Below are positions 1,466 through 34,527 of a stretch of 36,344 nucleotides of DNA, in pieces. The notes below the pieces were generated by a model, which was not told the DNA's origin, did not search any database, and saw only the letters and a program-made list of their open reading frames with translations. Within the stretch, counting starts at the first letter, position 1. Each line of letters begins with the position of its first letter. The DNA is taken from IMG/VR virus record IMGVR_UViG_2541047905_000018; one strand, written 5' to 3'. Origin of the DNA: a virus. Its lineage: Duplodnaviria; Heunggongvirae; Uroviricota; Caudoviricetes. Position numbers and translations under genes: made by a program.

Positions 1466-3525
1466 TCCACAACCTCCCCAAGCTGCGCATCTGTTAGCTC
1501 TTTATGCCAGAGACGAAAATTCCTCACATGCCCAAATAAATGGCGTAATCCTGCTGTAGTTTGTCCACCAATGCGAATGGTTGCTGTACTCCGGATATAT
1601 TCCCATGTGGTTTTTGTTTCGCTGGATATACGCCCGTTACTTACTGCACATGTAGACTGATCTGACTTTACACGCATCCCCATAACCATTTTTTTCAACG
1701 ATGCGTTTTCGTTAACACGCCTATTTGATCCACCAATATCGCAATAAGGAAATCCGTCTGGCCCATCTGCCGAAGATCCGAAGCCAAGAATAATAGCCGC
1801 TCCGGTTTGATGACCGCCGGTATCAAAAACACGTGGCGCTGCATTTGGCGTTTTATACCAGTTCTTATGTACCTCACAAAGAACCGTAAAAGGAAGATTA
1901 TAAAGATTATTCTTAATCGGAACTGTAACCATATCGCTTGCGCGCGTCGCCGCCGTCGTTCCTGATATAATAAAAGATGATACACACGAACCATCCTCAA
2001 CCTGAGGGGTGGCCAGATAAATATAGTCACCAGATTCAACGACACCACCTTTTTTTGGTGCGTATTGTATTGCAGAGGTTATGTAAGTTTCTTTACTTGC
2101 TTGAATCGTTGCCTCTACAAAAATCCAGCCCGTAGCTTCATCTTTGTTAACTCGTGCGGTGAGCCTGTCGGCAGCTACACCGGTGATTTCAACCAATAAA
2201 GACCGCGTATTAACAATGGCATATCCAAGATTAGATGAAGCGCTGCCATCGAAGGCTTCAAACCTGATCCTTAACAGGAGTTCCAAATCCGTTTTAAATC
2301 TGCACGATGTCGTCACACACTTATTATCGCCTGATACATCGACAGCCCCCGAGGTTGAAACTACTGCCATATTAAGGGTTGTACTTTGCCCAATTAATGA
2401 TTCATTACAAACAAACTTTCCATAAGTAAAACCAAAACTATCAGTTCCAACCTCAGCGACATTCATATTTGCAGATTTACCCCAAGAAGCTGGAGTTGCT
2501 GAATTCAACATGTAGTTGGTTCGCTGACCTTCAATCAATAAACCTTCTTTTTCAAATCGTGGCTCATTAATTTCCGCCGTTTTCAGTTCGCCAGATTTGT
2601 TGATATATGTTGCCGTTGATGCGCGACTGAAATTAACCTGTTTATCACTGGCAACCTGAACCACATTATCACCAATCTTCACTTTTTTATAACCCGGAGA
2701 ATAGCCCGTAATCATATCCAGCGAATCATTAAAGGGTATCCACACATCCGGCAGCGGCTGTAAAACATATCTGTACGGCTCTGCTGTCTGGTTTGCGTAT
2801 TCTCTGGCAGCATCTTCACTTGCTTTTGCTGCCGTCTGGCTTGCTGCCGATGCTTTCGCCGAGTTCGCCGCCGCTGTTTCGCTCACCTTTGCGTTGGCTT
2901 CACTGTCTTTGGCATTCGTCTCACTGGTTTTCGCTGCCGTCTGGCTGGATTTTGCGTTTTTTTCGCTGGCCTTTGTGGCTGTCTCGCTATTTTTCGCGCT
3001 GGTTTCTGATTTTTTGGCTGCTGTCGCGGAGTTTGCCGATGCAGTCTGCGAGGCCGCTGCCGCCTGTGCGCTGTTAGCTGCATTCGTTTCTGAGGTTTTC
3101 GCCGCATTCTTCGATGAGGCTGCTGCCGTTTCGGATTTCTTTGCCGCCGCTGCACTCTGTGATGACGCTCCGGCATGACGTGCCACTTCATTCACCATCA
3201 GCTCAAAACGGCGCAGTGCCTCCGGACGAACATCATCCTCCGTCATGGCGCCGAGAAAATCATTCAGCGTACCTGGTCTGGAACCTTCATAGACGGTAAT
3301 GGTCCCGGCATGTGAAGGCGGAAAACCTTCAACCAGCAGGGTGACGCTGTACTGGCCATACTCAACATCCATGCTGTAACGCCCGGCTTCATCCGGATTT
3401 TCAGAGGCCACCGTGTTCACCACCACCGTGCTGCTGGTCCGTCTGGCCTTCAGCACAATGGTGCAGTTCTGTACTGGTTTTCCTGTGCCATCTTTCAGCA
3501 CACCTGAGATTTTTACTGCTGCCAT
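1462..3525 (-). CDS. side tail fibre protein
   Basis: The N-terminus MAAVKISGVLKDGTGKPVQNCTIVLKARRTS... is the prophage tail-fibre N-terminal domain. A long Ala/Ser/Thr/Lys-rich repeat region follows (SETAA.. / AKTSETNA..), then a C-terminal jelly-roll-like region. I chose the ATG at 3525, which has GGAG 5 nt upstream, rather than the GTG at 3531. Confidence 0.85.
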   Translation of the reverse strand: MAAVKISGVLKDGTGKPVQNCTIVLKARRTSSTVVVNTVASENPDEAGRYSMDVEYGQYSVTLLVEGFPPSHAGTITVYEGSRPGTLNDFLGAMTEDDVRPEALRRFELMVNEVARHAGASSQSAAAAKKSETAAASSKNAAKTSETNAANSAQAAAASQTASANSATAAKKSETSAKNSETATKASEKNAKSSQTAAKTSETNAKDSEANAKVSETAAANSAKASAASQTAAKASEDAAREYANQTAEPYRYVLQPLPDVWIPFNDSLDMITGYSPGYKKVKIGDNVVQVASDKQVNFSRASTATYINKSGELKTAEINEPRFEKEGLLIEGQRTNYMLNSATPASWGKSANMNVAEVGTDSFGFTYGKFVCNESLIGQSTTLNMAVVSTSGAVDVSGDNKCVTTSCRFKTDLELLLRIRFEAFDGSASSNLGYAIVNTRSLLVEITGVAADRLTARVNKDEATGWIFVEATIQASKETYITSAIQYAPKKGGVVESGDYIYLATPQVEDGSCVSSFIISGTTAATRASDMVTVPIKNNLYNLPFTVLCEVHKNWYKTPNAAPRVFDTGGHQTGAAIILGFGSSADGPDGFPYCDIGGSNRRVNENASLKKMVMGMRVKSDQSTCAVSNGRISSETKTTWEYIRSTATIRIGGQTTAGLRHLFGHVRNFRLWHKELTDAQLGEVVE

Positions 3526-7200: not shown

Positions 7201-7952
7201 GGGTTATAGTTCGACGGCACCTGCAGAATGCGCCCGCGCAGATGATAATTACGGCTCACCTGCTGGCTGCCGAACTGCTCCGAATCCACCTGTACGCCGA
7301 CCAGTGCCGTGTTCGGGTAGCACTGTTTCACATCGATGATTTCGGTGTATGACGACCAGAGCGTTTTGTTCTGCAGCTGGTCTGTGGTGCTGTCCGGCGT
7401 CATCCTGCGCATCCGGATATTGAACGGACGCGGCGGCAGGTCACCCACCACCACCGATGCCAGATACTGTGAGGTGGTTTTGCCTTTAATGGTGATGTCT
7501 TTTTCCGTCACCCAGCCACCATTACGCTGTATCTGAACCAGCAGGCGGACTTCCGACGGATTCCGGTCCCCCTTTGAGGTGGTTTCCACCAGTGCCTGCA
7601 CACCGAAGGTAAAGCGCAGACGGTCGATGTTTGCCGACGTGATGGTCCGGGTAATCGGCGTGTCGTACTTCACTTCCGTACCCAGCACCGTCTCGGAGCC
7701 GGAGGATTCAAATCCCTCCGGCGGTGTCTGCTCCTGCTCACCGGCCCGGAACACCACCGTGACGCCGGATATATTGGTATTCCCCTCACTGTCCAGCACC
7801 GGCGTACTGTTCAGCAGCACGCTTTTTAATCCATCCACCGGACCTTCAACCGGCCCTTCGCTGATGGCATCAATCACACTCAGCAGCTGCGTGGACTTCA
7901 GGTTGTCCTTCGCTTCGCGCGGGGTATGCCCCTTACTGCTGCCTTTACCCAT
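4257..7952 (-). CDS. J: host-specificity / central tail fibre protein J
   Basis: 1231 aa. The N-terminal ~800 aa are near-colinear with lambda J ([34 protein letters not shown]...). It is about 100 aa longer than lambda J (1132 aa). Confidence 0.95.
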
Positions 7953-8012
7953 TCGTCATGCTCCATAAACGATAAAACCGCCCGGAGGCGGTTTCACATA
8001 AAACATTTTGCA

Positions 8013-8684
8013 TCAGCGACCAATCACCACAACCTGACCACCATCCCCTTCGTCTGCCGTGCTGATCTCCTGAGAAACCACGCGTGACCCCACGCGCATT
8101 TCACCGTACAGAACCGGCAGAACATTGCCCTGGGCAACCATGTTATCCAGTGAAGAAAAATAGGTGTTCTGTTTGCCGTTATCCGTTGTCTGTGTGCGGG
8201 GAGTTCTGGCTTTCGGTGCCAGCATCTGCGCCACACCACCGAGCACCATACTGGCACCGAGAGAAAACAGGATGCCGGTCATACCACCGGCCCCAATGGC
8301 TGCCCCCCATGCTGCAAGGGTGGCTCCGGCAGTAAAGAATGATCCGGCAATGGCGGCTGCTCCCAGGACAATCTGGAATACACCACCTGACTTGGCCCCG
8401 GCGACTCTGGGAACAATATGAATCACAGCGCCGTCAGGCAGAGCCTCATGTAACTGCGCCGTTAATCCGGACGTGCTGACATCCTGCCCGGCAATACGCA
8501 CCTGATACCAGCCGTCGCTCAGTTTCTGACGAAACGCCGGGAGCTGTGTGGCCAGCGCCCGGATGGCTTCGGCCCCCGTTTTCACACGAAGGTCGATGCG
8601 GCGGCCAAATCGTTGCAAATCCCCGTAAAGGCAGATGCGTGCCATGCCCGGTGACGCCAGAGGGAGTGTGTGCGTCGCTGCCAT
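8013..8684 (-). CDS. I: tail tip assembly protein I
   Basis: 223 aa. MAATHTLPLASPGMARICLYGDLQRFGRRIDLRVKTGAEAIRAL matches lambda I. Confidence 0.9.
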   Translation of the reverse strand: MAATHTLPLASPGMARICLYGDLQRFGRRIDLRVKTGAEAIRALATQLPAFRQKLSDGWYQVRIAGQDVSTSGLTAQLHEALPDGAVIHIVPRVAGAKSGGVFQIVLGAAAIAGSFFTAGATLAAWGAAIGAGGMTGILFSLGASMVLGGVAQMLAPKARTPRTQTTDNGKQNTYFSSLDNMVAQGNVLPVLYGEMRVGSRVVSQEISTADEGDGGQVVVIGR

Positions 8685-9325
8685 TTGTCGGTATACCTCT
8701 CTCGTTTGCTCAGTTGTTCAGGAATATGGTGCAGCAGCTCGCCATCACCACAGTAAATGGCGGCATGATTCGGCACCGATGAACCAAAACAGCACAGCAG
8801 CACATCGCCCGGTTGTGCTGATGACAACGGCACCTGATACAGCCCTGTGGCCTCCAGATTATCCAGATAGAGATTCTGACCGTGACGCCACCAGTCATCC
8901 TCGCGATGAAAATCCGGCATCTCAATCCCCGCCAGATGATAAGCATCCCGGAACAGCGTGTAACAGTCCGTCACCCCGTGCTCAAAGCGCCGCCCGGTGA
9001 GATGCGGCACACAGCGGAACTTATGAATCGTCCCCCGGCAGACCAGCCACCACGGCAAATCACTCTGCACCTGCAGCCGCCGGTCGGCCTCACTCAGCCA
9101 GGGCGGACCACCGGGGTGGCTGTGGACCAGCGCCACAATCTCACCCTGCATTTCTGCCTGCAGCCAGTCTTCCGGCGACATACGGAAATACGCCTCCGGC
9201 TCACCGGAGATATTCACGCAGGGAAAATATCTTTCCCCCTCCGGCGTTCTCACTACGAAGCCGCACGACTCCGCTGGCGCACATCGCCGGGCGTGCGCCA
9301 GAATCGCTGATTCTGTCTCTGTCAT
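8582..9325 (-). CDS. K: tail tip assembly protein K (MPN/JAB plus NlpC/P60 domains)
   Basis: MTETESAILAHARRCAPAESCGF... matches lambda K and contains the HSHPGG motif. I set the start at the ATG at 9325, 4 nt after the L stop. The 103-nt overlap with I is the same as in lambda. Confidence 0.9.
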   Translation of the reverse strand: MTETESAILAHARRCAPAESCGFVVRTPEGERYFPCVNISGEPEAYFRMSPEDWLQAEMQGEIVALVHSHPGGPPWLSEADRRLQVQSDLPWWLVCRGTIHKFRCVPHLTGRRFEHGVTDCYTLFRDAYHLAGIEMPDFHREDDWWRHGQNLYLDNLEATGLYQVPLSSAQPGDVLLCCFGSSVPNHAAIYCGDGELLHHIPEQLSKRERYTDKWQRRTHSLWRHRAWHASAFTGICNDLAAASTFV

Positions 9326-25101: not shown

Positions 25102-25107
25102 GCATGT

Positions 25108-25137
25108 AAAAAGGCCCCAACACATGTGCGTGGGGCC
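25108..25137 (-). terminator. rho-independent terminator closing the 230-nt ORF-less unit downstream of the tRNAs
   Basis: The minus strand reads GGCCCCA-cgcacatgtgt-TGGGGCC followed by T5. Confidence 0.6.
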
Positions 25138-25167
25138 TGAGAGTATACATGGTTTCAGTCAACTGCA

Positions 25168-25189
25168 TGGTGCCGGGTGCCTCCCGGTG
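25168..25189 (-). repeat. 22-nt element CACCGGGAGGCACCCGGCACCA (copy 1, sense in the late transcript)
   Basis: Exact 22/22 match to 34354-34375 on the plus strand. It contains a CCGGG-aggca-CCCGG hairpin and tandem GGCACC. Confidence 0.8.
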
Positions 25190-25337
25190 AATTCAGTACC
25201 AGCACCTGAATCCGCGATTATCCCATATACCTACTCGCTGATTGCCCATCCGCACAGGGGGATTCACCATGCCAGTTTCTTTTAACAAACTCCCCGCAAA
25301 ACAGACAACTGTCAACCGTCTGAATTGTGAGACATTT

Positions 25338-25377: not shown

Positions 25378-25454
25378 TGGCGCGTTGTACTGGATTCGAA
25401 CCAGTGACCGATTGCTTAGAAGGCAATTGCTCTGTCCGGTTGAGCTAACAACGC
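25378..25454 (-). tRNA. tRNA-Arg (anticodon UCU)
   Basis: I folded the cloverleaf by hand: acceptor GCGTTGT/ACAACGC, D arm GCTC..GAGC, anticodon arm ATTGC-CTTCTAA-GCAAT, T arm ACTGG-TTCGAAT-CCAGT, CCA encoded. Confidence 0.9.
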
Positions 25455-25467
25455 AGGGTACAGATAA

Positions 25468-25544
25468 TGGACCGCCATCGAGGACTCGAACCCCGCGCAA
25501 CCAGCTTCGAAGGCTGGTGCTCTATCCTGATGAGCTAATGGCGG
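25468..25544 (-). tRNA. tRNA-Arg (anticodon UCG)
   Basis: Cloverleaf: acceptor CCGCCAT/ATGGCGG, anticodon arm CCAGC-CTTCGAA-GCTGG, T arm CGGGG-TTCGAGT-CCTCG, CCA encoded. Confidence 0.85.
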
Positions 25545-25551
25545 TATGTGA

Positions 25552-25627
25552 TGGTGGCCCTTGCTGGATTTGAACCAGCGACCTGGCGATTATGAGTCGC
25601 TCGCTCTCACCACTGAGCTAAAGGGCC
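25552..25627 (-). tRNA. tRNA with CAU anticodon (Met, or Ile2 if lysidine-modified; the ileZ-like position of Stx phages)
   Basis: Cloverleaf: acceptor GGCCCTT/AAGGGCC, anticodon arm GCGA-CTCATAA-TCGC, T arm GCTGG-TTCAAAT-CCAGC, CCA encoded. Confidence 0.85.
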
Positions 25628-26097: not shown

Positions 26098-26478
26098 TTA
26101 CTTTTTTAGCAGCCAGTCGTCCATCTCCAGTCTTACCCCCAGCACAGACAAACATCCGTCAATAAACCCTTCGGCTATCTGCATCTCAATTCGTATTGCT
26201 TTTTCGCTTTTCTTTCTCGTCCTGGCTATCTGTCTTTTTGATATTCGCAACAAATAATGAGCAATGAGAAGCGAATACTCCTCAGGTTTTTTCTGCTTCA
26301 GACGAGCAAGACAGTTTTCAATGATAAGTCCGTCATCATCGCAGCAGGCCGGACGTGGTTTAGTGGCAGATGGTAAAAGTCCTTTGAATCCGGCAGCGAT
26401 CGGAGAATAGTCCACCCCGGTGTTACCACTTGCAGCCCATGCCCCCCAGCGTTCAAGAACCATCTGAATATCACGCAT
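26098..26478 (-). CDS. Q: late-gene antiterminator Q
   Basis: MRDIQMVLERWGAWAA... is the typical phage antitermination Q family opening. I chose the ATG at 26478, which has GGAG upstream. Position is immediately before the terminator, tRNAs and lysis genes. Confidence 0.85.
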   Translation of the reverse strand: MRDIQMVLERWGAWAASGNTGVDYSPIAAGFKGLLPSATKPRPACCDDDGLIIENCLARLKQKKPEEYSLLIAHYLLRISKRQIARTRKKSEKAIRIEMQIAEGFIDGCLSVLGVRLEMDDWLLKK

Positions 26479-26495
26479 CAACTTTCTCCACAAAA

Positions 26496-28354: not shown

Positions 28355-28744
28355 TCAGGCGGCTGCACCCGCCGTTTTCTCGTACTTACTGATAGTGATC
28401 TCGACCTTCCCTTCCGGGATAACCGGTCCCCACTCCACCAGCATTCTTTTCACCTGGCTGTCGTCTTCCCACACACCCGCGTGGGTCAGGGCGTCAAACA
28501 GCGCCTTGTTATAGTTGTCCAGATCGCGGATCCGGTTATCCGGAGGAAACAACACGATCTCCACTGAAGCAGGTGCCGACGTTGGTTTCGGCAGACGACG
28601 TAACTGCTCAACTATTGCTGTGCACGCCGCACTCTGGAATTTTCGCCCCGCCGCGCTTATCAGGCTCTTACCAGCAAATGCCCCTTTGTTGGGGTGTCGC
28701 CAGTAGGTGTTCACGCTGGGTGGAAAAGGCAGAATCAGCTTCAT
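28355..28744 (-). CDS. rusA: RusA Holliday-junction resolvase
   Basis: 129 aa. ...RDLDNYNKALFDALTHAGVWEDDSQV... matches the RusA core motif. Confidence 0.9.
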   Translation of the reverse strand: MKLILPFPPSVNTYWRHPNKGAFAGKSLISAAGRKFQSAACTAIVEQLRRLPKPTSAPASVEIVLFPPDNRIRDLDNYNKALFDALTHAGVWEDDSQVKRMLVEWGPVIPEGKVEITISKYEKTAGAAA

Positions 28745-29067
28745 ACTTTCAGCCCCCTCTCATGTAACCAGTGGGCTGCACGCAGCCTGGCGTTTTCCTC
28801 ACCAGCAAGCAGTGCGCGGATAATCCCGGCCACCTCGCTGTCGTCGTCCTTCACCGCGGTATGAAGCGTGATGCCCCGGGCCACGCCACGCTTTATCGTG
28901 ATGACGCCTTTTTTCTCCAGTGCGCGAAGATGCTCCACCGCTGCATTCACTGAACGGTATCCCAGCATGGTAGCCACCTCCTGATTGGTTGGCGGGAAGC
29001 CACGTTCTTTCTGGTAAGAAATCAGCATATCCAGCACCTGCTGCTGGCATTGAGTTAACGTCGTCAT
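28741..29067 (-). CDS. LexA DNA-binding-domain-only protein (no S24 peptidase domain)
   Basis: MTTLTQCQQQVLDMLISYQKERGFPPTNQEVATMLGYRSVNAAVEHLRALEKKGVITIKRGVARGITL aligns by eye with LexA residues 1-69. The remaining ~40 aa are unrelated and lack the Ser/Lys dyad. Start and stop are coupled to neighbours (TAATG and ATGA). Confidence 0.8.
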   Translation of the reverse strand: MTTLTQCQQQVLDMLISYQKERGFPPTNQEVATMLGYRSVNAAVEHLRALEKKGVITIKRGVARGITLHTAVKDDDSEVAGIIRALLAGEENARLRAAHWLHERGLKV

Positions 29068-29555
29068 TAAGCCCCCACGTAATTCCCTGACAGATACCAC
29101 TCTTCACCCGATACAGCGCGCTTGCTGCTTTTCCGTAAACACCGCTCACGACGCGCAAGAAAATTGTTTCGCTCTTGCTGGGAGTGGCTTTCACGGAATG
29201 CCGCCATCCACACCGTTGCAGCACGACGGTATAAGCCCCTGGACTCCAGTTCTTCAGCCTGACGGGTCAGGCACAAAATCACCCAGGGGTCGTTAGTGCC
29301 GACATAGAAATTGCTCACAGGTATGGTTTCAAGAACAGGTTGCAGTTTCTCCTCCTGCGATATCTCAGCCTGGTGTGGGAAATGTCTGCGTGTTTTCCCT
29401 TCACAACGGTGAGCCACACGCCCACTCTGACGTAACTTGCTTGCTGACTGCAGTACGCGCTGCCGTGAGTAACCTGCAAAAGCATCCGCAATGTCTCCGG
29501 AAGTACAGCCCGGATGGGCTTCAATGAATTTCTGAACTTCATTCAAAAGACTCAT
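29067..29555 (-). CDS. PerC/Pch-like regulator (wHTH-like N-terminus plus PerC-type C-terminal motif)
   Basis: The C-terminal segment LESRGLYRRAATVWMAAFRESHSQQERNNFLARRERCL resembles the PerC/PchA motif (..GLWRRAATRWL....R..W....R..C). I chose the ATG at 29555, after AGGGGG. Confidence 0.55.
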   Translation of the reverse strand: MSLLNEVQKFIEAHPGCTSGDIADAFAGYSRQRVLQSASKLRQSGRVAHRCEGKTRRHFPHQAEISQEEKLQPVLETIPVSNFYVGTNDPWVILCLTRQAEELESRGLYRRAATVWMAAFRESHSQQERNNFLARRERCLRKSSKRAVSGEEWYLSGNYVGA

Positions 29556-29557
29556 GA

Positions 29558-30499
29558 TCACCCCCTGAATCCTTCCGGGATCTGGCTGTAGTCCACGTTG
29601 TCGTAACTGGCTTTGAAGTACGGGTCCTCACGTTTTTCTGTGTGCGTGCTGACGGACGGCGATAAGCGCAGGGAAAGCTCATCCCATTTTTCCCGCAACT
29701 TCGACGGGCTGAGCACGTTACGGCACCAGAACGGATCACGGCTGACGCGGCTGTACATCTCGCAGATTTGTTTGTGAGTACGACCATCCTGCACACACAT
29801 CAGGCGAATTTCGTTTGCCCATGCTGTCCAGTTCGGTTCTTTGGGACGAACCACCTCGCCGTCACATTCGGCGGCCTGCTCGTACAGGGCGATGATTTTT
29901 TTCCAGAGCCACTGTGCGCAGGTCAAATCATCCTGCGTTCCCCACTGGCGCTTTTTAGGGCTGAATACAACCGCATCAGGATGGCGAGTTAAAAAATCCT
30001 GTTCAGCCGTCTGCGTGTCCGGTTGCAAAGCGTCCGGACGAGAAGGTTTTTTATCTGACGGATCATGTTTTGATTTTACTGACGGATCCCCGCCAGATTC
30101 TGACGGGTGAAAACACGCTTTTTTGCCAGATTTCGACGCATCAAATTTTGACGGGTCAGATTTTGATGCGTCAGATTTTGACGGGTCAGAATCTGACAGT
30201 TGAGAAAATGCCGCAGCCTGAAGCTTCGCAACGTTAAGCTGATAAACATTCGACGCATTGCGGTTACCCTGGCGACGCGCCTTACGCGTTAACCAGCCTT
30301 CTGCTTCCAGCCGTGCGATAGCCGTTCTGACGGTACTCATCCCCGCGCCAATCTGGCGGGCAATGGTTTCAATTGATGGCCAGCACACACCCTCGTCATT
30401 ACTGAAATCAGCCAGACGGGCCATAATTGCCACACTGGATAATTTCATGCCTGACGCTGCGCAACCATCCCATACATAGCCGGTTAATTTGGTGCTCAC
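29558..30499 (-). CDS. replication initiator (HTH N-terminal domain, iterons inside the gene)
   Basis: 313 aa with an N-terminal wHTH (VCWPSIETIARQIGAGMSTVRTAIARLEAEGWL). The central PSKSD/ASKSD repeats are encoded by the iterons. Position is equivalent to lambda O. Confidence 0.8.
   Translation of the reverse strand: MSTKLTGYVWDGCAASGMKLSSVAIMARLADFSNDEGVCWPSIETIARQIGAGMSTVRTAIARLEAEGWLTRKARRQGNRNASNVYQLNVAKLQAAAFSQLSDSDPSKSDASKSDPSKFDASKSGKKACFHPSESGGDPSVKSKHDPSDKKPSRPDALQPDTQTAEQDFLTRHPDAVVFSPKKRQWGTQDDLTCAQWLWKKIIALYEQAAECDGEVVRPKEPNWTAWANEIRLMCVQDGRTHKQICEMYSRVSRDPFWCRNVLSPSKLREKWDELSLRLSPSVSTHTEKREDPYFKASYDNVDYSQIPEGFRG
30064..30200. repeat. origin-like iteron array (15-bp repeats, consensus TCAGATTTTGACGGG)
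   Basis: Five contiguous 15-mers at 30126-30200 (CCAGATTTCGACGCA, TCAAATTTTGACGGG, TCAGATTTTGATGCG, TCAGATTTTGACGGG, TCAGAATCTGACAGT). Degenerate copies lie near 30093 and 30071. Confidence 0.8.
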
Positions 30500-31053
30500 T
30501 TACGCACCTCCTTATGCTTTTCGTTCAGTTCCGAGTCCACCAGCCCGGCAACGAATACACCATCGTTGATGTAGTCGTAGAGCGATGAAGCCAGCGGAGA
30601 CTGAACTGAAACCAGCATCGGATAAAGTTGTTCTAACCAAACGCGGTGAATTTCAGCCATGTAGAGGTAAACAACGTGGGCATTGTGCGCGACACATGAA
30701 GTATCAACCTTTCCGATCAGCGCCTGTTCCATCTGGTTAAAGGCATTGATGTATGCCTCTTTGAACTGGGCAGCACGTTTACCCGTGAAACCCATAGCAA
30801 GAAACGCAAAGCCATCGCGGGTTATTTGATAGCAAGGTAGTTTGCGAGTACCGCCGTTGGGCTGGCGTACCAAAATTGATGTCTCCGCAAAATTGCGGGC
30901 ACAAAACTCTGGAGAACAATCCAAAATGCGAATCTTTTTCAGAACATCGTCATGACGTTTAGAGAAGAAGTCAGCAACAGCCAAAGAAGATGTAACAGCC
31001 TGACCATCAACGATGGCAATTTCAGGTTGAGAGAGGGTTGGGAGAGTAGTCAT
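30496..31053 (-). CDS. Rha-family phage regulatory protein
   Basis: From the ATG at 31053: MTTLPTLSQPEIAIVDGQAVTSSLAVADFFSKRHDDVLKKIRIL..., a typical Rha domain. The supplied ORF extends to 31353, but that extension contains terminator hairpins (see the leader feature at 31054-31330). Confidence 0.7.
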   Translation of the reverse strand: MTTLPTLSQPEIAIVDGQAVTSSLAVADFFSKRHDDVLKKIRILDCSPEFCARNFAETSILVRQPNGGTRKLPCYQITRDGFAFLAMGFTGKRAAQFKEAYINAFNQMEQALIGKVDTSCVAHNAHVVYLYMAEIHRVWLEQLYPMLVSVQSPLASSLYDYINDGVFVAGLVDSELNEKHKEVRK

Positions 31054-31330
31054 AGTGACAGCCCCGGTAGTCAGTTTTTTAGAAAACTCACCACATGGGA
31101 CGCCAATCACAGAGGTGGTGAGACGTACAGGGTTGGCGTTACCGGAGACTACCGAACCCGGCCCGACCGAAGTCGGCCCTGTACGCCCCACCATAATTTG
31201 GGCGTAGCAATGCTCATGACACGAAAAAACCGCATGAGCGCGGTTATGCTCAGTAATCAATTTCAGGACGCCAATCCCGGCAACGGATTTTGCCGCTGCC
31301 AGAACAATATAACGCCCAGAATTATCAGAA
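31054..31330 (-). promoter_or_regulatory. highly structured leader with intrinsic terminators upstream of rha and the replication gene (tR1-like region)
   Basis: On the minus strand: AACCGC-gctcat-GCGGTT followed by T6 (31224-31245); TACGCCC...GGGCGTA; a 9-bp stem CGTACAGGG/CCCTGTACG enclosing CCGAC-UUCG-GUCGG; and CTCACCAC...GTGGTGAG followed by TTTTCT (31081-31122). Confidence 0.55.
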
Positions 31331-31522
31331 TCAATCATTACTGGTTTGCTCATGATCGTCCCTTATCTCCCTGAACTTTTGCCTGAAATGCTCAAGCGGG
31401 CTGAAGCATTCATGTTCATAGCCTTCACGGAGGTAGATAACCCGTTGTGTTTCCGGCTCCCAACGAATGACTCTGACGGGCACTCCGTAGTGATCTTTGA
31501 ACCAGCGGTTAACTTGTCGCAA
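31331..31522 (-). CDS. DUF4222-like small protein
   Basis: ...[44 protein letters not shown] fits my recollection of DUF4222. The likely start is the TTG at 31522, with AAGGAG 8 nt upstream. The supplied ORF begins at a GTG at 31564. Confidence 0.5.
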
Positions 31523-31701
31523 AGGACTGTCTCCTTCTGCCGGTTGAAATCCCCCACAGCCCACTCTGCAAAGCAGTGGGTTACAATTTCCCTGTCACCT
31601 GGTACATTCACTGCATAGCAATACTCCACCTTCGCTTTTCCACCCGGTACAGGAAGCGCAATCAGTTGCGAGCGACGGTAGTGTGTTGTTAAACTGTTCA
31701 T
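31363..31701 (-). CDS. hypothetical protein, start-coupled to the CII-like gene; its 3' half overlaps the DUF4222 gene out of frame
   Basis: The ATG at 31701 overlaps the upstream stop (ATGA). The N-terminal ~55 aa look protein-like and the remainder looks like out-of-frame read-through. Confidence 0.35.
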
Positions 31702-32531: not shown

Positions 32532-32596
32532 ACTAAGTTTTATTAGATGTTAATTATCAATCTATCTTAGGTCAATAAAAACTAAGATTACTTAGT
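32532..32596. promoter_or_regulatory. three-site operator (OR-like), half-sites ACTAAG/CTTAGT
   Basis: The sites are ACTAAGTTTTATTAGA (32532-47), ATCAATCTATCTTAGG (32556-71) and the perfect palindrome ACTAAGATTACTTAGT (32581-96). Centre-to-centre spacing is 24 and 25 bp. Confidence 0.6.
32547..32575 (-). promoter_or_regulatory. candidate pR (TTGACC-17 nt-TAACAT) driving the cro-like gene
   Basis: The minus strand has TTGACC (plus-strand 32570-75) and TAACAT (32547-52). It overlaps operator sites 1 and 2. Confidence 0.5.
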
Positions 32597-33299: not shown

Positions 33300-33326
33300 G
33301 CCATCAAAACTAAGTTAAGTTAGATT
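33298..33326 (+). promoter_or_regulatory. candidate pL (TTGCCA-17 nt-TAGATT) with an OL-like operator in the spacer
   Basis: The operator-like ACTAAGTTAAGTTAGA at 33309-33324 lies between the -35 and -10 elements. It shares its half-site with the OR sites. Confidence 0.55.
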
Positions 33327-34114: not shown

Positions 34115-34353
34115 CTTAAATAATCACCATGTTATTGGGGGTATCAAGATTAACCGAATCCTTGTTGTTGGGGAATAACCAGGTCCACCTCGCCTGATGT
34201 GGCTAAAAGCAGGCACATAACAGCTAAGTATTTTCAACCAGAGAGAATCCTTAGCGTTGTGGTGAATGCGGCTCAGCGCACGCGGGTTAAGGTTGAGGCT
34301 GACAGTCGACCTTCTGTGGATACCCACCCGCCTGGTGTGCAACCTTCGCCAGG

Positions 34354-34375
34354 CACCGGGAGGCACCCGGCACCA
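34354..34375 (+). repeat. 22-nt element CACCGGGAGGCACCCGGCACCA (copy 2, sense in the pL transcript)
   Basis: Exact reverse-complement match to 25168-25189. It lies about 15 nt upstream of the DicF-like sequence. Confidence 0.8.
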
Positions 34376-34438
34376 CAACAGCCACTGCTTTGGCGGTACC
34401 AGTTTGTACACTTGCTTCCGGCTGGTACCGCTCTTTTT
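34375..34438 (+). ncRNA. dicF: DicF-like small RNA with its own terminator
   Basis: TTTGGCGGTACCAGTTTGTAC matches the K-12 DicF core TTTGGCGGTATCAGTTTTAC at 18 of 20 positions. It ends in GCGGTACCAG...CTGGTACCGC followed by TCTTTTT. The synteny (repressor, pL, small ORFs, dicF) matches the Qin dicB operon. The 5' end is not determinable from sequence. Confidence 0.65.
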
Positions 34439-34527
34439 ACAAAACAGAGAAGAGCATCACCGGACGACGGGCTCATAACCCAATCCATCCGGGCGGCTGC
34501 CACCGCAGGTGTTCTTCTCTGTTTTGT
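34439..34527 (+). repeat. long inverted repeat (15-bp perfect stem ACAAAACAGAGAAGA / TCTTCTCTGTTTTGT) directly after the DicF-like terminator
   Basis: Read directly from the sequence. The arms enclose about 59 nt containing further GC hairpins. It is a candidate RNase III processing stem, which is inference. Confidence 0.6.

Follow-up and report, generated by a model that had tools for sequence, protein, structure and literature searches.

Hairpins preceding rha in a lambdoid prophage are an unannotated copy of the IsrK/C4 RNA switch

The hairpins that precede rha on the minus strand of the window (i.e., the whole 36,344-nt stretch of caudoviral DNA analysed here) are an unannotated copy of a known RNA switch, IsrK/C4. 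Both RNA genes, the covarying pairings among their recognition segments, and the position of one target segment, b2, beside the Shine-Dalgarno sequence and ATG of rha were observed or computed in the window, as were the homology of the internal promoter (P_isrK) to known promoters, the selection acting on the openness of the overlapping long frame, and the position of the start of that frame upstream of the internal transcription start. It is likely that the interval constitutes an antisense-RNA immunity module of the P4/P1 type nested in a long reading frame, with regulatory outcomes that would follow those of its relatives. The module is a member of a known RNA immunity kind and introduces no new kind of system. 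The initial annotation had described a passive leader with two terminators in the manner of lambda tR1; instead, the interval has its own promoter, two catalogued RNAs and covarying targets (Table 1).

Table 1. Features of the IsrK/C4 interval and its neighbouring genes, in window coordinates.
Feature	Position	Strand	Description
DUF4222 gene	31331..31564	-	Last pR-operon gene before the module; Pfam DUF4222 64.4 bits, PGAP annotation; stop overlaps the P_isrK -35
Long ORF, 285 aa ('Ash'-Rha)	30496..31353	-	ATG 31353 with AAGGGA Shine-Dalgarno; corresponds to P4 eta
P_isrK, internal promoter	31306..31334	-	-35 TTGATT 31334..31329, 17-nt spacer, -10 TATATT 31311..31306 (promoter scan)
IsrK sRNA	31223..31299	-	Two 5' hairpins, single-stranded linker, intrinsic terminator; equivalent to P4 seqA and the P1 a1b1 region
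a1, UUGGCGU	31268..31274	-	IsrK hairpin-2 loop and 3' stem; complementary to C4 a'
b1, GAUUACUG	31251..31258	-	IsrK linker; 8 bp with C4 b', two of them G-U
IsrK intrinsic terminator	31224..31245	-	AACCGCG-CUCA-UGCGGUU, then U-run; terminator scan and Rfam isrK 3' hairpin
C4-type antisense RNA	31111..31198	-	17-bp basal stem enclosing a UUCG hairpin and a second hairpin, with a single-stranded junction
b', CGGUAGUC	31147..31154	-	Loop of C4 hairpin 2
a', ACGCCAA	31133..31139	-	Single-stranded C4 junction
a2-presenting hairpin	31087..31122	-	CUCACCAC (31122..31115) with GUGGUGAG (31094..31087), then UUUUCU
a2, UUGGCGU	31106..31100	-	In the 20-nt loop of the presenting hairpin
b2, GACUACCG	31072..31065	-	Directly 5' of the GGGG Shine-Dalgarno 31064..31061, 7 nt before ATG 31053
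Short rha, 185 aa	30496..31053	-	Rha domain; cargo with its start putatively under C4 control; ATG position conserved relative to b2
Putative replication initiator, HTH_36 domain	29558..30499	-	GTG overlaps the rha stop as GTGA

Two catalogued RNAs and their recognition segments

IsrK matched Rfam RF01394 over the entire model (positions 1-77 of 77) at 68.6 bits, compared with a gathering score of 50 (E = 8.5e-13), and its predicted fold agrees with the Rfam model. C4 matched RF01695 over positions 1-87 of 87 at 82.3 bits (gathering score 45, E = 7e-15), while c4-a1b1 (RF03163) reached 44.3 bits at 31312..31260, slightly below its gathering score of 46.7. Rfam places isrK and then C4 in the same order in P4, in Gifsy-1 and in P1, the P1 isrK match being below threshold. 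Judged by sequence, the window C4 is the equivalent of P1 C4 and P4 CI, and Salmonella STnc1160 is probably a C4 equivalent as well. For C4/CI of P1 and P4, a stable RNA of ~77 nt is known to be excised by RNase P from a longer transcript (references in PMC5499578), and a processed RNA of ~80 nt, STnc1160, has been seen in Gifsy-1 (PMC4825925).

Folding, one of the checks proposed in the initial annotation, points the same way. The whole 271-nt stretch folds better than 200/200 shuffles (z = -4.7), and C4 alone reaches -47.7 kcal/mol (z = -6.0), a value matched by 0/200 shuffles, with a minimum-energy fold identical to the model structure. All four hairpin structures lie on the minus strand where they had first been placed, and the Rfam matches, the comparison with shuffles and the relatives bear out the earlier reading of the first 100 codons of the 285-aa ORF as DNA for a conserved structured RNA. 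The 9-bp stem around CCGAC-UUCG-GUCGG is real and forms the core of the C4 antisense RNA; the 7-bp hairpin TACGCCC/GGGCGTA is present (31206..31200 with 31188..31182) but weak when taken alone (-10.9 kcal/mol, z = -1.7). In C4 hairpin 1, four free pairs are kept through two-sided changes in 15-23 of 35 sequences, with 0 broken. Because the mid-stem was misaligned in a MAFFT alignment of these 35 C4 sequences, RNAalifold recovered no more than hairpin 1 and the basal-stem ends, and the Rfam model was therefore used for the full structure.

The predicted IsrK transcription start is the G at 31299 (TTGATT-17-TATATT-6-G), where the Rfam isrK model begins; the numbering of the mutants in PMC4825925 is consistent with a +1 at that base. 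The annotated P1 promoter P1c4/P51b, the P4 PLE region and Gifsy-1 PisrK can each be aligned position by position with P_isrK, a predicted promoter. No CI-operator-like palindrome was found near P_isrK.

The recognition segments pair over 8 bp for b'/b2 and over 7 bp each for a'/a2 and a'/a1. We compared own-locus with cross-locus duplexes of at least 7 bp in 97 unique related loci, which together carry 62 different a'/b' combinations, and found that the recognition pairings covary. Own-locus duplexes occurred in 90% of cases for a'/a2 (cross-locus 3.4%), 99% for a'/a1 (cross-locus 7%), 82% for b'/b2 (cross-locus 3.7%) and 75% for b'/b1 (cross-locus 3.4%). The result was reproduced in 59 loci from a species-level genome set, a weak replication and a useful negative control in that the scan consisted mostly of Pseudomonas and chance high-G+C matches and held four enterobacterial loci. 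The same comparison does not discriminate for two alternative helices, one joining the C4 3' arm to a downstream segment (own-locus 93%, cross-locus 75%) and one joining the spacer to the 5' arm (96% and 94%), because their arms are conserved across the family.

In nearly all related loci, b2 adjoins a Shine-Dalgarno sequence and an ATG. This position, together with the precedent of P1, suggests that C4 represses the downstream gene here. Mutations made in Gifsy-1 fall in the corresponding segments: G28 and G31 lie in a1, and C159 and C162 of the Gifsy-1 transcript lie in a'. G28A and G31A abolish IsrK action in trans, an action that otherwise raises anrP translation 139-fold, and C159U and C162U were also made (PMC4825925).

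Terminator-like hairpins and antitermination

The first hairpin is a true intrinsic terminator, as had been proposed, and it lies between pR and the replication genes and Q. The site 31245..31224 was the sole canonical terminator-like site called by the scan in the interval, it falls within the isrK match, and a hairpin with a U-run occupies the IsrK-terminator position in 78 of 97 related loci. Hfq binding by IsrK and its activation of the downstream gene in trans are experimental results for Gifsy-1 only (PMC4825925).

The second supposed terminator is a conserved hairpin that displays a2, and not a canonical terminator. Although the hairpin is present, it has a 20-nt loop and a predicted energy of only -13.9 kcal/mol; its 5' arm doubles as the 3' arm of the much stronger C4 stem; and the U-run that follows it pairs with the next A-run in a leader hairpin of -24.2 kcal/mol. 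For these reasons, and because the U-run is mostly unconserved (present 3' of the equivalent hairpin in only 37 of 90 relatives), we do not regard it as a terminator; the terminator scan did not call it either. The hairpin itself is found in 93% of the 97 loci, with loops of 17-25 nt.

The claim that no N is visible holds: no N-like ORF could be seen among the window ORFs, including those after the pL-like promoter, where neither such features nor Pfam matches were found, and the NZ_AP024112 prophage, whose 851 matched bases are the same as in the window, has no annotated N gene. The boxA-like motif YGCTCTTWA is absent from the whole window, and Rfam found no put-like or other antiterminator RNA. 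The 'dicF' listed among the first ORFs after pL was not upheld; Rfam gave no match to it or to another relevant RNA in the pL region, and dicF was not found even at E <= 1.

The canonical terminator, the lack of an N-like ORF and of a boxA-like motif, and the documented leakiness of the homologous Gifsy-1 terminator, which allows partial read-through (PMC4825925), could all be accommodated by an untranslated leader with two terminators like lambda tR1, crossed by leaky read-through, a put-like RNA or an unrecognised N-like protein. We nevertheless consider such a leader improbable: the structures are members of two catalogued families of trans-acting RNA and have their own promoter, the covariation between recognition loops and targets at the rha ribosome-binding site is left unexplained by a passive terminator, and neither the second hairpin, with its large loop and its U-run lost in most relatives, nor the Rfam search for antiterminator RNAs speaks for it. 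Nor is the module tied to the tR1 position, since P1 and P4 carry it too and Gifsy-1 has it downstream of Q. The earlier argument that the phage needs a way past these terminators applies to the first of them, which does lie in the pR-to-Q path. A likely way past the block, one that requires neither N nor put, is translation of the long ORF by ribosomes on pR transcripts.

The overlapping long reading frame

The ATG of the long ORF at 31353 lies 54 nt upstream of the IsrK start and within a 23-nt overlap with the 3' end of the DUF4222 gene, so the long ORF is translatable only from upstream (pR) transcripts. The ATG of the short rha at 31053 lies 100 codons into the long ORF and 11 nt after b2. 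The 185-aa Rha itself is well supported (Pfam Phage_pRha, 96 bits; NCBIfam TIGR02681, 89.9 bits), and the replication gene is probably translationally coupled to it because its GTG overlaps the rha stop. By position, the short rha would be the counterpart of P4 kil, P1 icd-ant and Gifsy-1 anrP. Most genes that follow a C4 module belong to the antirepressor or Bro-network type.

We show that, in enterobacterial relatives, selection keeps stops out of the long frame. In the window, its first 100 codons contain 0 stops, compared with 8 and 9 in the other two frames. It is open in 54/54 enterobacterial loci from four lineages with different cargo, including the 19 of 54 in which the short gene is out of frame with it (the short gene is in frame in the other 35). 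The enterobacterial lineages are related, and openness in the conserved part is inherited; therefore, only the hypervariable segments count independent events, and there the stop triplets divide by phase as 0, 20 and 22 (n = 42, P = 4e-8), with none in the long-ORF frame. Among 55 non-enteric C4 loci of similar G+C, used as a control, the frame held a mean of 2.65 stops, 8 loci being open and 47 not. Of the 54 relatives, 52 have their first ATG ahead of the internal start site, and among 12 close relatives whose upstream sequence differs, 7 retain a Shine-Dalgarno sequence with an ATG 17-20 nt before the -35. If the long ORF is translated, what is selected appears to be openness and not the peptide, because the 100 upstream codons lack an excess of third-position variation: variable columns by codon position number 32, 46 and 44 of 100 there, and 95, 85 and 133 of 160 in rha.

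This codon pattern is also what would be expected if IsrK and C4 worked as RNAs and the 285-aa ORF were an annotation artefact, with Rha always made from ATG 31053 and the match to the Ash family a by-product. NCBIfam is blank for the 100-aa extension, Pfam Phage_ASH has a further match in the obsolete P4 'cI protein' ORF, which covers the CI RNA, P1 has a stop in the corresponding frame, and orf45 is conserved as nucleotides and variable as amino acids (PMC12197685). We consider this reading unlikely, however, given the missing stop triplets in independently varying segments, a frame open in all four enterobacterial lineages even when out of phase with its cargo and not open in most of the non-enteric loci, and the recurrence of a start codon with its Shine-Dalgarno near the internal promoter. 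In addition, PMC10111431, citing Forti et al. 1999, reports the long ORF of P4, eta, as translated and functionally important. The 285-aa ORF is thus probably not an artefact, contrary to what the initial annotation implied, given the stop-free frame, the ATG upstream of the IsrK start and the eta/kil layout. On the basis of the selection for an open frame, an ATG that precedes the internal start, and the arrangement shared with P4 eta/kil, we predict that the full 285-aa protein is made after induction.

The N-terminal extension has a name in protein databases. Pfam PF10554 (Phage_ASH) matches the long-ORF translation at 51.7 bits over model positions 1-105, databases and two papers list Ash as a domain found in Rha or Bro-network proteins, and in recent work on Shiga-toxin phages the 'Ash domain' figures as a protein domain whose function is unknown. 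We show that the 'Ash domain' is the translation of IsrK and C4. That Ash is instead a genuine folded domain fused to Rha, with the RNA-family matches incidental to coding, is highly improbable, since the covariance-model scores are far over threshold, hairpin 1 shows compensatory changes, the intermolecular covariation falls in segments that are hypervariable as 'amino acids', the upstream codons lack a codon-position signature, and experiments have established the homologous RNAs of P1 and P4 and, in Gifsy-1, IsrK. A published equation of Ash with the P4 epsilon antirepressor was also rejected, as epsilon is PF25738 and Ash matches the old P4 'cI' ORF.

Relation to P4, P1, Gifsy-1 and lambda, and a proposed mechanism

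The nested eta/kil genes of satellite phage P4 are the nearest known parallel to the window. P4 immunity is said to be organised as seqA, CI RNA and seqC nested in eta/kil. We reconstructed the layout of P4 eta and kil from sequence and confirmed the nested arrangement. As in the window, isrK/c4-a1b1 and then C4 matches are separated by a hairpin with a U-run, the promoter lies within the long ORF, and the long ORF, which begins where the preceding gene stops, spans both RNAs. Furthermore, the short gene is in frame with the long ORF, its Shine-Dalgarno and ATG come right after b2/seqC, replication genes lie downstream, and Pfam Phage_ASH matches both translations. The two differ in cargo (185-aa Rha in the window, 65-aa Kil in P4), in setting (an N-less lambdoid prophage with pR as the upstream promoter, whereas P4 has PLL), and in recognition sequences, hence in immunity specificity. 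C4-caused termination is reported for P4 and might by analogy apply to the window. According to PMC10111431, which cites Forti et al. 1999, translation of the long form in P4 suppresses RNA-imposed termination and allows immunity-insensitive read-through from the upstream promoter.

The P1 module (NC_005856) shares with the window the order promoter, a1, b1, hairpin with U-run, C4, a2, b2, Shine-Dalgarno and ATG, at almost the same distances: a2 and b2 are 22 nt apart in P1 and 27 nt in the window, and b2 precedes the ATG by 10 and 11 nt, respectively. Spacer and C4 5' arm share sequence, the promoter aligns with P51b, and the cargo is of antirepressor class. The immI locus of P1/P7 reportedly runs c4, icd, ant. 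Unlike the window, P1 has a stop 14 codons into the frame, and thus no nested long ORF; since P1 is the founding member, nesting is not common to all C4 modules. P1 differs further in the small ORF icd that precedes ant, in a C1 operator in the promoter region, compared with no CI-operator-like site near the window P_isrK, and in an isrK score of 35 bits, below threshold. Two contigs of ~90 kb (L076 and L012) considered as P1-like were rejected because BLAST gave no P1 match.

Gifsy-1 carries isrK (79.3 bits) and a C4-family RNA (69 bits) with a1, a' and a2 identical to those of the window (UUGGCGU / ACGCCAA), with b2 adjoining the anrP Shine-Dalgarno, and with the same promoter architecture (TTGACA-17-TATATT-6-A). 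Terminator read-through, the ~80-nt STnc1160 and activation of the cargo by IsrK in trans have been found there by experiment (Hershko-Shalev et al. 2016, PMC4825925). In contrast to the window, the Gifsy-1 module is located downstream of Q, beside isrJ, and outside the early operon; its frame across C4 terminates in an ATGA on the anrP start, leaving a separate 'orf45', while the window frame is fused. The Gifsy-1 cargo, AnrP, has an ORF6N domain. Orthology of the window Rha with AnrP was rejected, and only the RNA module is homologous, because the two proteins lack detectable similarity (E = 1.1). The Gifsy-1 study was framed without the P1 C4 model and read the a1:a' helix as a cis structure of the mRNA (PMC4825925).

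With lambda tR1 and HK022 the window has in common an intrinsic terminator between the cro/cII-type genes and the replication-to-Q genes of a lambdoid prophage. It differs in that no N-like ORF, boxA or put-like RNA was found, in having its own promoter, trans-acting RNAs and an overlapping ORF, and in the proposed override, which would be effected by ribosomes and not by a modified RNA polymerase.

We propose the following model, in which the function of the module in the window prophage and all regulatory outcomes are borrowed from P1, P4 and Gifsy-1. In a lysogen, the promoter in the 285-aa ORF, having no repressor operator, would initiate at about 31299 and make the 77-nt IsrK, which would stop at its own terminator. 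Read-through transcripts would be processed to a C4 RNA of ~80 nt, as RNase P cuts in P1 and P4, and C4 would pair through loop b' and junction a' with b2 and a2 of the rha leader. Because b2 adjoins the ribosome-binding site, the short rha would not be translated, and the replication gene overlapping its stop would also be silent through coupling and polarity. IsrK, since it carries the look-alike sites a1 and b1, would compete for C4, as a decoy in trans or as a co-target in cis. After induction, pR transcripts would include ATG 31353, and ribosomes translating the long ORF would cross a1/b1, the terminator, C4 and a2/b2. Their transit would block formation of the terminator, folding of C4 and its pairing, so that transcription could reach the replication genes and Q without N. 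As its main output, the module could either repress translation, as in P1, or terminate transcription, as in P4.

In Gifsy-1, co-expression of STnc1160 strengthened and did not weaken IsrK toxicity (Hershko-Shalev et al., PMC4825925), an effect not expected from a simple decoy model. Gifsy-1 physiology may not transfer, because its module is located downstream of Q and outside the early operon. A broader proposal, which we advance tentatively, is that in N-less lambdoid prophages of enterobacteria the block before the replication-to-Q genes is a C4/IsrK module, crossed by ribosome transit and not by a modified polymerase. If this is true, the Ash peptide would itself be functionless, with selection only for the absence of stops, even in hypervariable recognition segments; the eta/kil device of P4 would stand in generally for N-type antitermination; and Gifsy-1 'orf45' would be a C4 RNA, with IsrK as its decoy or co-target.

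IsrK and C4 are both unannotated in the genome records examined, which list in their place a protein of 279-287 aa named 'Rha family', 'antirepressor' or 'immunity region'. Sequence similar to an 851-base query (isrK, C4 and flanking genes) is present in 3016 of 5426 complete E. coli genomes. Our analysis joins three literatures, on P1 c4, P4 CI/eta/kil and Salmonella IsrK/orf45, in one element, and the stop-codon phase test gives cross-lineage sequence support to the view, derived from P4, that RNA-imposed termination is overridden when an overlapping ORF is translated. For rha and the replication genes, the module probably provides a second layer of immunity, based on RNA. The 62 a'/b' combinations in 97 loci imply many specificities, which bears on prophage cross-talk and on the induction of toxin phages.

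RNA identities and recognition segments in the rha leader

The four minus-strand structures that the initial annotation described ahead of rha are all found in the sequence, and an Rfam scan covering the whole window returned two full-length, above-threshold matches within the interval, to IsrK and the C4 antisense RNA (see the table). The first proposed terminator is the 3' hairpin of IsrK (AACCGCG-CUCA-UGCGGUU plus a U-run, 31245..31224, minus strand), the sole canonical terminator-like site called in the interval by a terminator scan, while the 9-bp stem enclosing a UUCG hairpin is present but belongs to C4, whose core it makes up. The predicted fold of C4 has an energy of -47.7 kcal/mol (z = -6.0 vs shuffles), and the entire 271-nt stretch folds better than all 200 of 200 shuffles (z = -4.7). 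A promoter scan identified a promoter-like site inside the long ORF (P_isrK; TTGATT-17-TATATT, 31334..31306, minus strand), which aligns column for column with the annotated P1 P1c4 (P51b), the P4 PLE region and Gifsy-1 PisrK; by this alignment the predicted start is G 31299, position 1 of the IsrK model.

Recognition segments and RNA matches in the window and in related elements
Feature	Coordinates	Strand	Details
IsrK (RF01394)	31299..31223	-	68.6 bits, gathering score 50
C4 antisense RNA (RF01695)	31198..31111	-	82.3 bits, gathering score 45, E = 7e-15
c4-a1b1 (RF03163)	31312..31260	-	44.3 bits, slightly below threshold 46.7
a1	31274..31268	-	In IsrK hairpin 2; complementary to a'
b1	31258..31251	-	GAUUACUG; 8 bp with b', 2 of them G-U
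b'	31154..31147	-	CGGUAGUC, C4 loop; complementary to b2
a'	31139..31133	-	ACGCCAA, C4 junction; complementary to a2 and a1
a2	31106..31100	-	Complementary to a'
b2	31072..31065	-	GACUACCG; followed directly by GGGG, then ATG 31053 7 nt on
P4 isrK/c4-a1b1 match	8705..8615		seqA region of P4
P4 C4 match	8507..8420		P4 CI immunity RNA; kil next
Gifsy-1 isrK match	34316..34240		
Gifsy-1 C4 match	34214..34131		69 bits; anrP next
P1 c4-a1b1 and C4 matches			isrK below threshold; C4 match is the annotated c4 RNA; then a2, b2, icd

We gathered C4 loci from viral contigs with a search pattern that fixed the invariant core only, yielding 97 unique loci with 62 different a'/b' combinations. Across these 97 loci, duplexes of at least 7 bp formed far more often between segments of the same locus than across loci, for a'/a2 (90% vs 3.4%), a'/a1 (99% vs 7%), b'/b2 (82% vs 3.7%) and b'/b1 (75% vs 3.4%), and the same picture emerged from a second set of 59 loci from species-level genomes. 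A Shine-Dalgarno sequence and ATG adjoin b2 in nearly all 97 loci. The covariation proposed as a check in the initial annotation is thus present, and it is intermolecular in nature, a feature left unexplained by a passive terminator; the covariation also sets the regulated rha start at ATG 31053, from which the 185-aa product carries a complete Rha domain. The genes under C4 control are diverse: the 34 genes downstream of C4 modules (contigs L002-L121) include Rha (5), the P4-epsilon 'Derepression' family (4), Bro-N (2), DUF3077 (2), DUF6124 (2), and one each of a P22 antirepressor, a large helicase with an intein and a Tad2-like anti-defence domain.

The second proposed terminator is a hairpin of CUCACCAC (31122..31115) with GUGGUGAG (31094..31087) on the minus strand. 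CUCACCAC serves both as its 5' arm and as the 3' arm of the C4 basal stem, a2 lies within its 20-nt loop, and its energy is only -13.9 kcal/mol. When the leader is folded alone, the UUUU that follows pairs with a downstream AAAA as part of a -24.2 kcal/mol leader hairpin (z = -4.1), which buries b2 and the Shine-Dalgarno sequence as well. An equivalent hairpin occurs in 93% of the 97 loci, with loops of 17-25 nt, and a U-run lies 3' of it in only 37 of 90. We therefore read it as a conserved a2-presenting hairpin rather than a terminator; in the window's lineage it may also cause weak termination. Two conserved alternative helices compete with the C4 basal stem. We noticed that the spacer UACGCCC (window 31182..31206, minus strand), conserved in P1 (L124, ~3330..3362) and Gifsy-1 (L123, ~34195..34228), is complementary to the 5' arm of that stem, such that, with the a2 hairpin, each arm has a conserved alternative partner.

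The overlapping 285-codon frame

We at first took the 285-aa ORF (31353..30496, minus strand) for an artefact. Its 100 upstream codons show no third-position excess among 19 close relatives, with 32, 46 and 44 of 100 columns variable by codon position, vs 95, 85 and 133 of 160 in rha. The Pfam family Phage_ASH matches residues 15-110 and also an obsolete P4 ORF lying over the CI RNA, while the true P4 epsilon antirepressor belongs to another family. In the P4 record (L122, NC_001609), RefSeq still carries this ORF at 8168..8584 (minus strand) as 'cI gene product (AA 1-137), transcriptional repressor'; its translation is what PF10554 Phage_ASH (59.7 bits) describes, and one paper took PF10554 as an epsilon marker, whereas the true epsilon (7888..8175) is PF25738.

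The frame is nevertheless too clean for an artefact. It contains 0 stops in 100 codons vs 8 and 9 in the other two frames (chance ~0.01 by shuffling). Taken relative to the C4 core, this frame runs open through C4 in 54 of 54 enterobacterial loci, which represent four lineages, related to each other, with different cargo genes (those downstream of the C4 module), and it does so even in loci whose cargo gene lies in another frame. When each variant is counted once, the recognition segments, which vary independently, hold 0, 20 and 22 stop triplets by phase (binomial P = 4 × 10−8). The first ATG of the frame lies upstream of the internal start in 52 of the 54 loci, and 7 of 12 close relatives with differing sequence upstream of the -35 element have a Shine-Dalgarno sequence and ATG 17-20 nt upstream of it. 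In 55 non-enteric C4 loci that served as a control (mostly Pseudomonas, with similar G+C), the frame holds 2.65 stops on average and is open in only 8; in P1 the corresponding frame meets a stop after 14 codons. Conservation of the RNA therefore does not account for the open frame, and this cross-lineage test on sequence indicates that its openness is maintained.

ATG 31353 itself has an AAGGGA Shine-Dalgarno sequence and lies 54 nt upstream of the IsrK start; there is a 23-nt overlap with the end of the DUF4222 gene. A 112-aa ORF (31363..31701, minus strand) overlaps that DUF4222 gene (31331..31564) in another frame, filling the gap after the YmfL-like gene, where PGAP annotates DUF4222 only. 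In the MAN (L016, L037, L043) and MLA (L024, L113) lineages, the long 'Ash' ORF and the cargo gene lie in different frames, yet the 'Ash' frame stays open across the entire cargo gene (76 or 64 codons), and in MLA it re-enters the next, epsilon-like gene in frame; this could be coincidence or an additional layer of overlapping translation.

Comparison with P4, Gifsy-1 and P1

A hairpin and U-run between b1 and C4 is common to P1, P4, Gifsy-1 and the window; in the P1 record, annotated a1 and b1 sites precede c4. The P4 ORF 8812..8168 contains kil (65 aa), whose ATG 8365 directly follows b2 and a Shine-Dalgarno sequence, and, in frame, the 197-codon eta, which begins at the stop codon of the alpA-like gene ahead of it and extends across seqA and CI. 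In P4, seqA is a co-target, not a decoy. The window shares this eta/kil layout, with ATG 31353 upstream of the IsrK start and in frame with rha. According to the summary of Forti et al. 1999 in PMC10111431, a constitutive P4 promoter inside eta gives a transcript terminated via RNA interactions at CI and seqA, Kil is made through occasional read-through, and full-length Eta is translated only from an upstream promoter, its translation preventing termination.

In Gifsy-1, published mutations G28A and G31A fall in a1 and C159U and C162U in a' (mutations from PMC4825925). That anrP translation rose 139-fold with IsrK in trans, and that double mutants restored repression only partly (PMC4825925), as expected if mutated a' no longer pairs with wild-type a2, fit the IsrK/C4 reading. 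Two effects are unexplained by a simple decoy model, namely the higher basal anrP translation when a1 was mutated in cis and the stronger IsrK toxicity upon STnc1160 co-expression (PMC4825925). Gifsy-1 'orf45' starts at an AUG in the C4 5' arm and ends as ATGA on the anrP start; as published (NC_010392, 34076..34214, minus strand) it coincides with the C4-family RNA and the a2 and b2 targets, and the published helix b-I is the a1:a' pairing. IsrK and c4 were handled as unrelated systems in the 2016 paper (PMC4825925) and in a 2025 review.

Proposed regulation and its reach

The analysis itself shows which RNAs are encoded, how their segments pair and covary, that b2 sits at the ribosome-binding site and that the promoter is homologous to known ones, and there is selection for an open long frame starting upstream of the internal start. 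In the lysogen, P_isrK would produce IsrK, and read-through with processing would release C4; RNase P processing is known for P1 and P4 (references in PMC5499578), and an ~80-nt species was seen for Gifsy-1 (PMC4825925). C4 would pair with a2 and b2 and block rha translation, and since the rha stop and the next gene share the sequence GTGA (30499..30496, minus strand), we propose that this gene is silenced too, by coupling and polarity. IsrK, bearing a1 and b1, would compete for C4. Upon induction, ATG 31353 would be present on pR transcripts, and ribosomes on the long ORF would override the terminator, C4 folding and C4 pairing, allowing transcription to reach the replication genes and Q (26493..26098). 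The main output may be translational repression, as in P1, or termination, as in P4.

CI-operator-like palindromes are confined to pR/pRM and pL, with none in the vicinity of P_isrK. Palindromes of the form ACTAAG-N4-CTTAG (32532..32547, 32581..32596, 33309..33324) flank the divergent cro/cI promoters and the pL-like promoter and occur nowhere else in the early region. As the initial annotation remarked, the window shows no N-like ORF after the pL-like promoter. None is annotated in the NZ_AP024112 prophage either, which agrees with the window at every one of the 851 matched bases. No boxA-like motif was found in the window, and Rfam detected neither a put-like RNA nor the DicF named earlier. 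The module is not bound to the position of lambda tR1 that the initial annotation suggested: Gifsy-1 carries it downstream of Q, P1 in a plasmid context and P4 in a satellite context.

Elsewhere in the window, tRNA genes Met-CAT, Arg-TCG and Arg-TCT (25378..25627) and, just downstream, a strong STnc100 sRNA match (133 bits, 25102..25301, minus strand) lie between Q and the lysis genes; a second STnc100-like match (34238..34440, plus strand; 36 bits vs gathering score 47) is located ahead of yfdP in the pL operon. The early operon also encodes a 119-aa protein with a LexA DNA-binding domain only, without the protease domain, and a PerC-family regulator, placed between the replication gene and rusA (28741..29100 and 29067..29561, minus strand).

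Both RNAs were already catalogued, the nested-gene logic is published for P4, and CI and seqA homologues inside 'Bro network' genes were noted in 2023 (PMC10111431). Here, what is new is 1) the assignment of this prophage and a very common E. coli module family to the P4-type system, with 3016 of 5426 complete E. coli genomes containing sequence that resembles the 851-base query, 2) the recognition that 'Ash' and Gifsy-1 'orf45' are translations of RNA genes, and 3) a cross-lineage sequence test of the openness of the overlapping frame.
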